A DNA stretch of 24,949 nt from a virus. Its lineage: Duplodnaviria; Heunggongvirae; Uroviricota; Caudoviricetes. The DNA lies in IMG/VR virus record IMGVR_UViG_3300022187_000019; one strand, 5' to 3'. Within the stretch, counting starts at the first letter, position 1, and each line of letters starts with the position of its first letter. The notes under the pieces are model-generated. The model saw only the letters and a program-made list of their open reading frames with translations, made no database searches and had not been told where the DNA came from. The translations under genes were made by a program, and so were the position numbers. Of the stretch, positions 18,465-24,693 are shown one piece after another.

Positions 18465-18493
18465 TTGACATACTGCAATTGTGAATGTAGATG
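18465..18493 (+). promoter_or_regulatory. Promoter for the ~220-nt RNA
   Basis: TTGACA-N17-TAGATG with an AT-rich upstream region. Confidence 0.7.
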
Positions 18494-18499
18494 CCCTTT

Positions 18500-18722
18500 C
18501 ACACCGCAGCGATGCGGAACGCTCCAAGATTTACCGAGGGGCAGACTCAGCCGGAGTCACTTTGCGGACAAGTAGTGTCGAACTTGGACATGAACGAAAG
18601 CACTGGCCGGTCTGGTATGGATACGCTCCGAGTAAAGGGCGGGTAGAACGGAGGAAGCTCCGAGATCGCCGGCCCCTAATCGGGAGGCCATCCCAGCGCA
18701 AGTGAGGCTGTCACGCGGTAAG
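18500..18722 (+). ncRNA. Unidentified structured RNA (~220 nt)
   Basis: Own promoter, no SD-led ORF, many hairpins including GNRA loops. Confidence 0.55.
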
Positions 18723-18749
18723 TTTTGGATTGCCTCTTGCAATTATGAC

Positions 18750-18778
18750 TTGACATTGCTCGAATCAGTTGTTAGAGG
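18750..18778 (+). promoter_or_regulatory. Promoter for the large ncRNA
   Basis: TTGACA-N17-TAGAGG. Confidence 0.72.
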
Positions 18779-18784
18779 CTCAGG

Positions 18785-19628
18785 AACACCCCGCTTGAGG
18801 GGGATAGCGTTGGGTAACCAACGTAAAGGAGGTATGGCCACATAACTCCGCCGGCTTGCCGGTCAATTCAAGCAAGTGCAGTCAGGTCCGCGAGGATCGC
18901 TTCTGGTAACGGGAGCTAGGCTGTTAGCAGGACAAGGCCCTTGAGGGGATAGAGGAGAGCCAGATCGGTGACCTCGAACGCCGGAGTAGAACCCGGAGCT
19001 TGTGTCTAACCTGCGGCAGCGGATGATAAAGCACAAGGTCATCAGTTCAAGACTTAGCGGTCAAGAGCAATGATCAGTTTGGTAGGGTGAAGGTCCTGCT
19101 CGACGGTCTTGGTAGTGTTTAGCGACATGACGGACATGAGGCGACTAGCATTCCGCAGGTGGAAACATCAGTGGAACTAGGAGGTAGCTCGTCTCGGTGG
19201 CTTGCAAACTTAGCTTAGTGGTAAAGCAACGGACTCTTAATCCGTGGATCGCTGGTTCGAACCCAGCAGTTCATATCAAAACGCAAAGATTGCTTCGACT
19301 GTATGTGAAAGACGCCTAATACCGCAGGGTTCGCCCAATGCGGTCTGCTCCTAGCCGGCAAAGCGAAGAGTGGTTGGTGAAAGAAAGTTCGTTGCCCCGT
19401 CGCGGGGGCTTAATGGCGGTAACACGTCAACGGTCTGGGAATCGCCGAATATCATGCAGTGTCGCCGCTAATGCCAGCGGCCCCGTGAGAATCGGGAAAA
19501 ATAGGCGGCGTTGATCTGGGACCGGGCTACTCGCAAGAGGGCTTGGTGGATAAGGTGGCAAGGTGCCTCGCAAGGGTTCCGTAATCCTCCGAACGACAGA
19601 TCGCAACGGGTGTAGTCTCAGCCTGTCT
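18785..19628 (+). ncRNA. GOLLD-like giant ncRNA (~840 nt)
   Basis: ORF-free, next to tRNAs, GNRA-rich. The 3' half has TAATACCGCAGGGTTCG...CCTAG...AAAG..GAGTGGTTGG..AGAAAGTTCG and ends GGGTGTAGTCTCAGCC, which I recall as GOLLD consensus blocks (not searched). Confidence 0.72.
19204..19278 (+). tRNA. tRNA-Lys(CTT)-like element embedded in the GOLLD RNA; broken acceptor stem, no CCA
   Basis: D arm GCTT/AAGC, anticodon arm ACGGA-CTCTTAA-TCCGT, T arm GCTGG-TTCGAAC-CCAGC. The acceptor stem has two mismatches near its end. Confidence 0.8.
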
Positions 19629-19640
19629 ATATTCATCACC

Positions 19641-19813: not shown

Positions 19814-19842
19814 TTGACATCCAGTCAAGTTTCAATTATCAT
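19814..19842 (+). promoter_or_regulatory. Promoter of tRNA operon 1
   Basis: TTGACA-N17-TATCAT; CTTGAC-N5-GTCAAG palindrome. Confidence 0.8.
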
Positions 19843-20016: not shown

Positions 20017-20048
20017 AAAGGGTCGCGAAAGCGGCCCTTTTTCGTTTC
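20017..20048 (+). terminator. Intrinsic terminator (attenuator) between the leader and the first tRNA
   Basis: AAAGGGTCGC-GAAA-GCGGCCCTTT followed by TTCGTTTC. Confidence 0.85.
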
Positions 20049-20123
20049 TCGGTGTAGCTCAGTTGGTAGAGCGCCTGCTTTGGGAGCAGGAAGTCGTCGG
20101 TTCGATCCCGGCCACCTTGACCA
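20048..20123 (+). tRNA. tRNA-Pro(TGG)
   Basis: Cloverleaf, loop TTTGGGA, encoded CCA, two acceptor-stem mismatches. Confidence 0.9.
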
Positions 20124-20924: not shown

Positions 20925-21314
20925 ATGCGGAAGAAGTCTTTTCTGCTGACCACCACGCTGGCAGCAGCGTTGGCGGTAAGCGCCTGTGGCCGCCCGGCCA
21001 ACCAGTGGGACGAGTCCTACAACGTCTATTCCGACCGCAACACGGCGGTCTGCACCGACAAGAACAAGCGCCGCGTGCCTGACAGCTATTGCCAGCAGAA
21101 CCGTGGCGGCGGAGCCGGCAACGCCTTCATGTGGTATTACCTCGGCAAGTCGGCCGCAGTCCCCTATCACGGCGATCCGGTGCGTGGCGGCAGCTTCGCT
21201 CGCACGCCCGGTGCCACCTACTTCCACGCCCCGGCTTCCTCGTCCGTGACCCGTGCGGCGGCTGTCTCGCGCGGCGGCTTCGGTAAGTCGGCATTCGGGA
21301 GTGTCGGCGGTTGA
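20925..21314 (+). CDS. Lipoprotein, DUF1190/YgiB-YjfM-like
   Basis: Signal peptide with a VSAC lipobox; SRGGFG C-terminal motif; directly upstream of a GSP synthase-like gene. Confidence 0.78.
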   Translation: MRKKSFLLTTTLAAALAVSACGRPANQWDESYNVYSDRNTAVCTDKNKRRVPDSYCQQNRGGGAGNAFMWYYLGKSAAVPYHGDPVRGGSFARTPGATYFHAPASSSVTRAAAVSRGGFGKSAFGSVGG

Positions 21315-22460
21315 TCCGTAAGCAGGTCGCCCAGCGCCTCAACTGGCAGCAGGCCGTCGCCGATGACGGACTGATCTGGCACACCGACGGCGTCGATCCC
21401 TACTGGCGGGAGGGAACCTATTATTCCTTCGCGCCGGGCGAGATCGACCTGTTCGATGAGGCCACCCGCAGCGTCTACAACCTCCTGCTTGCAGCCGGCG
21501 ATGTCATCGTCGGGGACAAGAGCGGGGAATGGCTGACGAAGATGGGCATCCCGCAGAAGGCGCACGCCGCCATCCGCCGGGCGTGGGATCAGGAACCCCC
21601 CTGCCCTCAACTACGGCCGGTTCGACTTCGGTTATGACGGCCGGACCGAACCCAAGATGTTCGAGTTCAATTGCGACACCCCGACCTCGCTGCTGGAAGC
21701 CTCGGTGATCCAGTGGCGCTGGAAGGAGCAGGTCTTCCCGGACCTCGACCAGTTCAACTCCATCCACGAGCATCTGGTCACCAAGTGGGCGGACATCCGC
21801 CCCTTCCTCCCCAACGGCGAAATGCACTTCACGCATTTCTTCGACGATGCCGGTGAAGACACCGTGACGACCGCCTATCTGCGGGACACCGCAGCAGCCG
21901 GCGGTATCGGCTCGAAGGTCATCCTCATCGAAGACATCGGTCTGTCGGCTGATGGGCGCTTCGTTGATTTGGACGAAGAGGTCATCACGACCCTGTTCAA
22001 ACTCTACCCGTGGGAATGGCTGGTCAACGAGGACTACGCCGACGCCGTGTTCAACAGCGTCGATACGATGGTCTGGCTGGAGCCGATCTGGAAGATGATG
22101 TGGAGCAACAAGGGCATCCTGCCCCTGCTCTCCAAGCTCGATCCCGGCAACCCCTTCCTGCTCCACAGCAGCTTCGAGAAGCCGGCGACCGGCTCCTATG
22201 TCAAGAAGCCGCTGCTGGCTCGTGAGGGAGCCAACATCGAGATCGTGGATCGTGATGTGCTGGCGGCCACCGGCGGCGACTACGGCGAGGAAGGGCACGT
22301 CTATCAGGAGATGTATCGTCTCCCGGAAACCGCGCCCGGCGTCTTCCCGGTGATCGGTAGCTGGATCGTTGATGGCGAGCCGTGCGGTATCGGCATCCGC
22401 GAGGACGGCCTCATCACGAGCAACACGGCAAAGTTCGTGCCGCATGTGATCGGGGGCTGA
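21311..22460 (+). pseudogene. Glutathionylspermidine synthase-like ATP-grasp protein (YgiC/YjfC family), split by a +1 frameshift at C6 21596-21601
   Basis: Removing one C gives ...QEPPALNYGRFDFGYDG...EFNCDTPTSLLE..., then KLYPWEW, WSNKGILPLL, VKKPLLAREGANI and IGSWIV...GIRED. Confidence 0.88.
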
Positions 22461-23835: not shown

Positions 23836-23911
23836 GGATCGATAGCTCAGTAGGTAGAGCGGCGGATTCTTACTCCGCAGGTGCTGGGTTCAAGCCCCAG
23901 TCGATCCTCCA
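23836..23911 (+). tRNA. tRNA-Lys(CTT)
   Basis: Cloverleaf, loop TTCTTAC, unusual U73, CCA. Confidence 0.88.
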
Positions 23912-23977: not shown

Positions 23978-24053
23978 GGACCGGTAGCTCAATTGGCAGA
24001 GCAGTGGGCTTTTAACCCGAAGGTTGTGGGATCGTGGCCCACCCGGTTCACCA
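23978..24053 (+). tRNA. tRNA-Lys(TTT)
   Basis: Loop CTTTTAA, atypical T loop ATCGTGG, CCA. Confidence 0.87.
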
Positions 24054-24612: not shown

Positions 24613-24618
24613 CATATG

Positions 24619-24693
24619 GGAACGTAGCTCAGTTGGTAGAGCACCGGATTGTCTATCTGGTTGTCGCGGGTTCGAACCCCGTCGTTCTCGCCA
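24619..24693 (+). tRNA. tRNA-Asp(GTC)
   Basis: Loop TTGTCTA, G73, CCA. Confidence 0.92.

Follow-up and report, generated by a model that had tools for sequence, protein, structure and literature searches.

We analysed a 24,949-nucleotide (nt) stretch of DNA, hereafter the window, from a tailed phage (Caudoviricetes; IMG/VR record IMGVR_UViG_3300022187_000019), in which a long non-coding RNA gene stands in front of an array of transfer RNA (tRNA) genes and holds within it a further, tRNA-shaped module. Our results support the assignment of this gene to the GOLLD family, described by Weinberg et al. in 2009 (as cited in PMC12286853), and suggest that the module would act as a tethered mimic of tRNA-Lys. 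GOLLD RNAs are among the largest non-coding RNAs of bacteria and phages, and they have no known function. The family itself, its link with tRNA arrays, its embedded tRNAs or pseudo-tRNAs and its cage are already published (PMC12286853, PMC6582537, PMC12990946). The features of the locus are collected in Table 1.

A non-coding gene and its family

The source record is a virus genome of 151,382 base pairs (bp), judged complete, and its nearest named relatives are the Erythrobacter phages XM05 and vB_EliS-L02, of about 150 kilobases each. The source phage is a siphophage of about this size, with hosts of the sphingomonad or Erythrobacter type. The stretch that matches GOLLD is unannotated in the deposits of both relatives, and the description of vB_EliS-L02, which lists 29 tRNAs, leaves GOLLD unmentioned (PMC9127768).

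Comparison with five orthologues, found in XM05, vB_EliS-L02 and the IMG/VR contigs L061, L064 and L197, places the start of the gene at about 18781-18790 and its end at 19626-19629. Identity with these relatives is 70-75% over 780-910 nt, and reaches about 74% over some 860-910 nt for L061 and L064. The open reading frames within 18781-19626 are all short (40-93 amino acids), and the substitutions that separate the gene from four of the orthologues show no three-base periodicity. Folding of five orthologues with RNAalifold gave 272 pairs, 96 of which have compensatory changes, spread over both halves of the RNA, and at least six GNRA tetraloops cap hairpins that are backed by covariation. The locus is one non-coding gene, and both its 5' and its 3' domains are maintained by compensatory base changes. 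A preliminary description of the window had noticed about 840 nt free of open reading frames and rich in GNRA hairpins, and the comparison agrees with it on both counts.

The 3' domain matches the Rfam GOLLD model RF02032 over its full length (Table 1), with an E-value that becomes 2.7e-40 when the whole genome is searched. The covariance search that the preliminary description had named as a check of its GOLLD assignment is thus significant, with 140.1 bits, albeit below the curated gathering cut-off of 150 bits. At the gathering level Rfam reports only tRNAs in the window, and the GOLLD match surfaced under E-value reporting. The low score fits a G+C-rich sequence (55% in the matching part) set against a model with an A/U-rich consensus. 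Among the orthologues, L061 and L064 score above the cut-off (172.1 and 157.6 bits), and XM05 and vB_EliS-L02 score 120.4 and 141.9 bits. The window RNA aligns over its full length with L061 and L064 and should therefore, by homology, belong to the same family.

Several other traits are consistent with this assignment. The 5' domain resembles those of GOLLDs above the Rfam cut-off, weakly but significantly (nhmmer, E about 1e-5). The terminal GOLLD motif GUGUARUCUCAGCC is present and invariant among the orthologues. Downstream of the gene lie 14 tRNA genes within the window, and GOLLD genes near tRNA arrays have been published (PMC12286853). The identification of the gene as a GOLLD RNA, proposed in the preliminary description, is hence supported by the full-length match and by the two orthologues that pass the cut-off.

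Table 1. Features of the locus. Positions count from the first nucleotide of the window.
Feature	Position	Strand	Evidence and remarks
Promoter-like site of the GOLLD gene	18750..18778	+	TTGACA 18750-18755, 17-nt spacer, TAGAGG 18773-18778; putative
Whole GOLLD RNA gene	18781..19626	+	Homology limits against five orthologues; about 845 nt; 5' end uncertain by about 8 nt
5' domain, variable half of GOLLD	18781..19137	+	Hairpins supported by covariation; nhmmer similarity
3' domain, full-length match to Rfam GOLLD RF02032	19138..19624	+	140.1 bits, E 1.6e-38, model 1-416/416
Linker-closing helix, 5' strand GAGGUA	19181..19186	+	Pairs with 19291-19296
Variable linker (J13/15 of the published structure)	19196..19290	+	95 nt: 8-nt spacer, 72-nt module, 15-nt A-rich spacer
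tRNA-like module, Lys(CUU) type	19204..19275	+	Anticodon 19236-19238; UCA at 19276-19278
Linker-closing helix, 3' strand UGCUUC	19291..19296	+	Pairs with 19181-19186
Conserved 3'-terminal GOLLD motif GGUGUAGUCUCAGCC	19609..19623	+	RF02032 alignment; same motif retrieved 81 GOLLD 3' domains from IMG/VR
Promoter of the next transcription unit (tRNA operon)	19814..19842	+	TTGACA, 17 nt, TATCAT; 11/12 matches
Free-standing tRNA-Lys(CUU), comparator	23836..23911	+	66.0 bits, 7/7 acceptor pairs, U73, CCA, loop UUCUUAC

The tRNA-like module in the variable linker

The module lies in the variable linker, an unpaired stretch of RF02032 between the first hairpin and the conserved GCAAAG. All five orthologues form the six-bp helix that closes the linker, with covariation at four of its six positions, and the same pairing is visible in distant GOLLDs. 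RNAalifold drew this region differently when it folded the whole RNA, with the T arm and the 3' strand of the acceptor in one long hairpin and GGUGGC paired with GCCAC. We rejected this fold because the cloverleaf and the GAGGUA/UGCUUC helix covary and recur in distant GOLLDs.

The Rfam tRNA model recognizes the module with 62.3 bits, against a cut-off of 29, and with two non-standard acceptor pairs; ARAGORN calls it a tRNA-Lys with anticodon CTT. Its D (4/4), anticodon (5/5) and T (5/5) stems are complete, the loops that form the elbow are kept, the anticodon loop reads CUCUUAA, with U33 and A37, and the discriminator is A73. The acceptor stem (GCAAACU/AGUUCAU) starts with G1.U72, C2xA71 and A3xC70, followed by four Watson-Crick pairs, and UCA stands after the discriminator where CCA is expected. 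The three intact arms, the two distal acceptor mismatches and the UCA had all been read correctly in the preliminary description. The D, anticodon and T stems are also paired in the five orthologues, with compensatory changes and a single exception, a G.A at 27-43 in L064.

The anticodon loop varies among relatives: it is CGCUUAA in XM05 and L197, CUUAUAA in L064, CUUCUAA in L061, and has nine nucleotides in vB_EliS-L02. Counted over seven related lineages, the modules have CUU twice (the window and the L138 type, named after another IMG/VR contig), CUU with G33 twice, and UAU, UCU and the nine-nucleotide loop once each. No site in the RNA covaries with the anticodon, in the sense of an aligned triplet complementary to the anticodon of each orthologue, whether G.U pairs are allowed or not, and docking of the module's anticodon loop by pairing is not supported.

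The family-wide survey comprised 119 IMG/VR stretches drawn with the conserved 3' motif, the window and the two named phages, i.e., 122 segments. A GOLLD 3' domain is present in 81 of them; the remaining 41 were chance matches of the motif in coding DNA and were dropped. The GOLLD cut-off is passed by 16 of the 18 survey loci that were put to Rfam. A tRNA detectable by ARAGORN occupies one fixed place in the linker of 22 of the 81 GOLLDs (21 of them unique), which belong to very different phages, and the D, anticodon and T arms are intact in all 22.

The 21 embedded tRNAs were set against 205 array tRNAs of these loci that could be parsed well. CCA is encoded by only one of the embedded tRNAs, against 158 of the array ones (descriptive p 5e-11), and acceptor pairs 1-3 are all formed in 5/21 against 172/205 (descriptive p 2e-8), while pairs 4-7 are formed equally in the two groups. 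The G+C content of the acceptor stem is 34% in embedded and 67% in array tRNAs, and 151 of the latter have seven of seven acceptor pairs. GOLLD-embedded tRNAs typically lack CCA and have an acceptor end that is frayed and A/U-rich. The anticodon loop differs as well. U33 is found in 17/21 embedded and 202/205 array tRNAs, with G33 in two independent Lys-type modules. Anticodons ending in U36 (Lys UUU/CUU, Arg UCU, Asn GUU, Ser GCU, Ile UAU) make up 16/21 of the embedded and 72/205 of the array set, a preference that may result from common descent via single-base anticodon changes. Eight loci have 12 or more array tRNAs, and in seven of them an array tRNA shares the anticodon of the embedded one.

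In the window, all 14 free tRNA genes encode CCA, and the module is the only one of the 15 tRNA-shaped genes that does not. Its anticodon duplicates that of the free tRNA-Lys(CUU) at 23836, which is intact, as the preliminary description had stated (Table 1). Twelve of the 14 array anticodons recur in both XM05 and vB_EliS-L02, mostly in the same order. The phage genome yielded no gene for a CCA-adding enzyme (PF01743).

The contigs of the L138 type hold a shortened GOLLD, with about 290 nt lost (L138:2388-3211, identical in L179, L207 and L220). The gap corresponds to window positions 18904-19200 and takes away most of the 5' domain, the first hairpin of the 3' domain and one of the two strands of the helix around the linker. 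The 3' motif of this GOLLD is mutated to CAACC.

We reached genomes of the host family through homologues of the phage glutathionylspermidine synthase, of which the nearest cellular ones are in Sphingomonas, Allosphingosinicella and Novosphingobium (54-61% identity). In the window this gene is split into two adjacent open reading frames, 21311-21637 and 21657-22460 (+), which correspond to positions 1-84 and 102-371 of the profile. Among 81 genomes from the family of a Novosphingobium genome, 44 have a tRNA-Lys(UUU) that the module matches at E <=1e-8, with 87% identity over nt 6-66; the free tRNA-Lys(CUU), tRNA-Lys(UUU) and tRNA-Asn(GUU) of the phage have no match at this threshold in the same genomes. 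The differences from this tRNA concentrate in the acceptor stem: the body (8-65) is identical to the host-family tRNA-Lys(UUU) at 50/57 positions and the acceptor stem at 6/14 (Fisher p 0.001), and the T arm is identical at 17/17. The free tRNA-Lys(CUU) is identical to the host tRNA-Lys(CUU) at 47/58 positions, so that its contrast with the module is modest, and mimicry of the host by the module may be taken as a lead only.

Mimic, working tRNA or relic

The missing CCA, the frayed acceptor end and their recurrence across the class lead us to read the module as a tethered, non-decoding mimic. We give a probability of about 60% to this reading, i.e., to a GOLLD RNA that would hold an unexcised tRNA-Lys mimic in a cage. 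Judging from the env-38 and Streptococcus agalactiae GOLLDs, the RNA would self-assemble into a closed, RNA-only cage of 12-14 subunits, and by homology to the solved structures its variable linker would face the lumen. The linker of the env-38 GOLLD lies inside the closed 14-mer cage, and tRNAs are known in GOLLD linkers (PMC12286853). According to a 2026 review, the linker is J13/15, and a Mycolicibacterium GOLLD has there an inward-pointing tRNA-Phe (PMC12990946, which traces it to Morgado 2020). The GOLLD of Mycobacterium aubagnense has an internal pseudo-tRNA, and northern blots revealed no separate tRNA (PMC6582537). In the window RNA, the module makes up almost the whole linker and is tied in by the 8-nt and 15-nt spacers and by the covarying six-bp helix. 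It would be neither cut out nor charged, would stay tethered, in one copy per subunit, and would most likely offer a handle or a bait to some protein recognizing the tRNA body or the anticodon arm. The bound protein could be a host nuclease targeting tRNAs, or a processing or repair enzyme.

Some observations weigh against the tethered mimic. The RF02032 score is 10 bits below the curated cut-off, cage formation is extrapolated to the window RNA from other family members, and the statistics on embedded and array tRNAs treat related sequences as independent, so that they are descriptive. The remaining points fit a rival in which the embedded element would be a genuine tRNA-Lys(CUU), released by RNase P and a 3' nuclease, completed with CCA by the host enzyme and then charged. 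The module scores as a normal tRNA (62.3 bits, within the 49.6-69.8 of the array tRNAs), and it has a canonical Lys loop, with U33 and A37, as well as A73 and intact D and T loops. Addition of CCA can occur after transcription. The free tRNA-Pro(UGG) at 20048 is also mismatched at 2-71 and 3-70; the same phage tolerates both mismatches in a free tRNA, and they are therefore no proof by themselves of lost function. The embedded tRNA-Lys(CUU) of the L138 type, with 6/7 acceptor pairs, U73 and CCA, comes closer to a genuine tRNA, and some lineages may therefore hold a working copy. GOLLD would in this case be a carrier or a timed store of tRNA, and such 'inhibited storage' has been proposed in print (PMC12990946).

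Yet, the module is the sole CCA-less member among the tRNA-shaped genes of the window, its acceptor is down to four Watson-Crick pairs and one G.U, and the embedded class as a whole lacks CCA and distal acceptor pairing. It is also redundant with the intact free tRNA-Lys(CUU), its orthologues combine the same Lys-type body with G33, a nine-nucleotide loop or other anticodons, and the phage genome has no gene for a CCA-adding enzyme. In the mycobacterial case, no separate tRNA was seen (PMC6582537). The class pattern and the resemblance to host tRNA-Lys argue against simple tRNA supply, and we regard a genuine tRNA as unlikely. The preliminary description had called the module probably non-chargeable, and comparison supports this claim (no CCA, unpaired distal acceptor, class pattern).

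One could also see the module as the decaying relic of a captured tRNA gene, tolerated without function in an unconstrained linker. A degenerate acceptor end, a missing CCA and an anticodon loop that drifts (G33, nine nucleotides, changed anticodons) would fit such a history, as would the fact that the linker is the variable part of the GOLLD family (PMC12286853). However, the damage is uneven and focused on the acceptor stem, the T arm is identical to that of the host tRNA over 17/17 positions, and the same site is used in 22/81 GOLLDs, always with intact D, anticodon and T arms. Because the three stems are compensated across orthologues, the position is fixed and the differences concentrate in the acceptor stem, a relic seems very unlikely.

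If the module is a tethered mimic, it might more specifically be a decoy, which is a form of this reading and not an exclusive alternative to it. It would soak up or block a host nuclease that cuts Lys (or ANN-reading) tRNAs in the anticodon arm, while the free, altered tRNAs of the phage would sustain translation. The preliminary description had suggested this for PrrC, RloC and the AriB nuclease of PARIS, which is speculation. AriB cuts the tRNAs for Lys(UUU), Thr(UGU) and Asn(GUU) between U36AAUC and A41 (PMC12409363), the tRNAs of phage T5 evade it via changes at the U36AAUC site (PMC12409363; PMC11464382), and phage tRNAs neutralise PARIS and retron effectors (PMC11464382, PMC11555353). 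Several traits of the locus are in line with a decoy. The body of the module is host-like (87% identity to tRNA-Lys(UUU) over nt 6-66, a level at which the free tRNAs of the phage are unmatched), and the embedded modules are enriched in U36 (16/21 against 72/205). The motif U36AAUC, which reads U36AAUCC in the module, is kept in six of seven members of the clade while nt 34-35 vary, and C38 of the free tRNA-Lys(CUU) breaks it. Finally, the phage has an RtcB ligase, which fits a pressure from tRNA cleavage. This RtcB-type RNA ligase is encoded outside the window (genome G000:C1:52326-53468, minus strand) and matches at full length with 410 bits. RtcB ligases can reseal tRNAs cut by anticodon nucleases. 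As for the D-loop determinants of AriB, U16/U17, the D loop of the module (AGUGGUA) has a U, with positions 16/17 mapped only loosely.

Other points weigh against a decoy. No nuclease has been identified in the hosts, whose genomes were searched for tRNA similarity and not for PARIS, PrrC or RloC. The host-likeness contrast is modest (50/57 for the module, 47/58 for the free tRNA-Lys(CUU)), and the U36 enrichment may simply be common descent. The module of vB_EliS-L02 has neither the motif nor a seven-nucleotide loop, those of XM05 and L197 have G33, and UAAUC is absent from most embedded modules outside the clade. A decoy specific for Lys is further at odds with orthologous modules that have UAU, UCU, G33 or a nine-nucleotide loop. 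The linker would also lie inside a closed cage, where a nuclease would gain access only if the cage opens. On balance, we hold the decoy to be distinctly improbable.

The comparison with phage T5 is instructive here. Like the tRNA-Lys(UUU) of T5, the module is a tRNA-Lys-like RNA from a tRNA-rich phage; its anticodon arm has U36AAUC, the motif published as determinant for AriB. T5 supplies free replacement tRNAs that can be charged and resist the nuclease. The module, in contrast, would be tethered, has no proper acceptor end and retains the motif that makes tRNAs sensitive, so that it could serve as bait only. To our knowledge, such a bait role has been shown for no system. In its broadest form, the idea is that GOLLD cages would carry tethered host-like tRNA mimics, 12-14 per particle, that trap host proteins attacking or processing tRNAs (e.g., nucleases of the AriB, PrrC or Schlafen type) during infection. 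We see this as a long shot. If true, an arms race would have left its mark in the rapid change of nt 33-35 between related phages, and GOLLD, functionally unexplained since 2009, would gain a role in counter-defence.

Flanking elements and known systems

The putative promoter of the GOLLD gene combines a perfect TTGACA with a weak second hexamer (Table 1). Most orthologues (XM05, L064, L197 and L138) keep TTGAC and TAGAG at the same spacing, and the consensus promoter scan made no call at 18750-18778 because the second hexamer is weak. The dedicated promoter of the preliminary description thus finds backing in the conservation of hexamers and spacing, but not in the scan. On the other side, the GOLLD unit is bounded by the promoter of the tRNA operon. 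We found no intrinsic terminator after 19626, where the fold is no better than those of shuffled sequences (z -0.76) and the scan finds none before 19813. At the corresponding site XM05 has a clear hairpin followed by a U-run. The 3' end of the gene is placed here by homology alone.

Directly upstream of the GOLLD promoter is a conserved non-coding element (18466-18735, +), with a promoter-like site of its own (TTGACA at 18466-18471 and TAGATG, separated by 17 nt). After this site come about 205 nt (18525-18730) with 77-79% identity to XM05, L197 and the L138-type contigs. Every reading frame of this stretch is interrupted by stops, codon periodicity is absent, and the predicted fold comprises 65 pairs, eight of them compensated, the closing helix included. 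The element has no Rfam match at E-values up to 10, and matches to a 14-nt pattern drawn for it were mostly due to chance. We consider it a candidate for an undescribed structured RNA.

Some free tRNAs of the array have unusual features. The tRNA-Pro(UGG) (20048-20120, +) has CCA in spite of its mismatched acceptor pairs 2-71 and 3-70, the tRNA-Lys(UUU) (23978-24050, +) has the T loop AUCGUGG (A54/U58), and the tRNA-Asp(GUC) (24618-24690, +) has U37, in the loop UUGUCUA. Together with the free tRNA-Lys(CUU), they may be variants that escape nucleases, or merely divergent phage tRNAs. In several GOLLD-bearing phage contigs, one of which is vB_EliS-L02, the tRNA array is followed by a transfer-messenger RNA gene, with permuted alpha- and beta-proteobacterial types among these genes (L002:12569-12862; L078:6278-6629; L082:7158-7524; L031:1457-1832; L035:4386-4735).

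The example presented here extends GOLLD to large phages of marine sphingomonads, including the cultured XM05 and vB_EliS-L02, which carry the RNA unannotated. It also reveals what the embedded class keeps, the body and the anticodon arm, and what it loses, CCA and the distal acceptor pairs. These comparative points (no CCA, a frayed distal acceptor, a host-like body and the retained U36AAUC) make the function of GOLLD more testable, and cultivable phage-host pairs exist for experiments on the function of the module.

How does this RNA compare with known systems? With the GOLLDs modelled by RF02032 it shares the full-length 3' domain, the terminal motif, a large structured 5' domain and a linker after the first hairpin of the 3' domain, as well as the location in phages with adjoining tRNA arrays. 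It differs from their consensus in that its lineage is G+C-rich and 10 bits under the cut-off, and from known GOLLDs in that the hosts of this lineage are marine alphaproteobacteria. The solved structures, the env-38 14-mer (PDB 9MEE) and the S. agalactiae 12-mer (9L0R), are oligomers that have been seen (PMC12990946), whereas the window RNA is known from its sequence. ROOL has in common with GOLLD that it is a large phage RNA near tRNA islands, which builds a cage from RNA alone, with a disordered linker on the inside (PMC12286853). Its sequence and fold are unrelated to those of the window RNA, and no Rfam match to ROOL was found in the window.

The closest parallels to the module are the pseudo-tRNA of M. 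aubagnense and the tRNA-Phe of Mycolicibacterium, which are also tRNA-shaped elements in the linker of a GOLLD, located in or next to a large tRNA cluster. Unlike them, the window module is of Lys type, with a body near the tRNA-Lys of the host family, and the defects of its acceptor end are documented here and compared with array tRNAs. Bacterial Y-RNA-like (YrlA) RNAs and viral tRNA-like structures also place a tRNA-shaped domain within a larger RNA, as a non-decoding surface for recognition by proteins. These are other families, and the tRNA-like structures of plant viruses are terminal and chargeable, whereas the module of the window is internal to its RNA.

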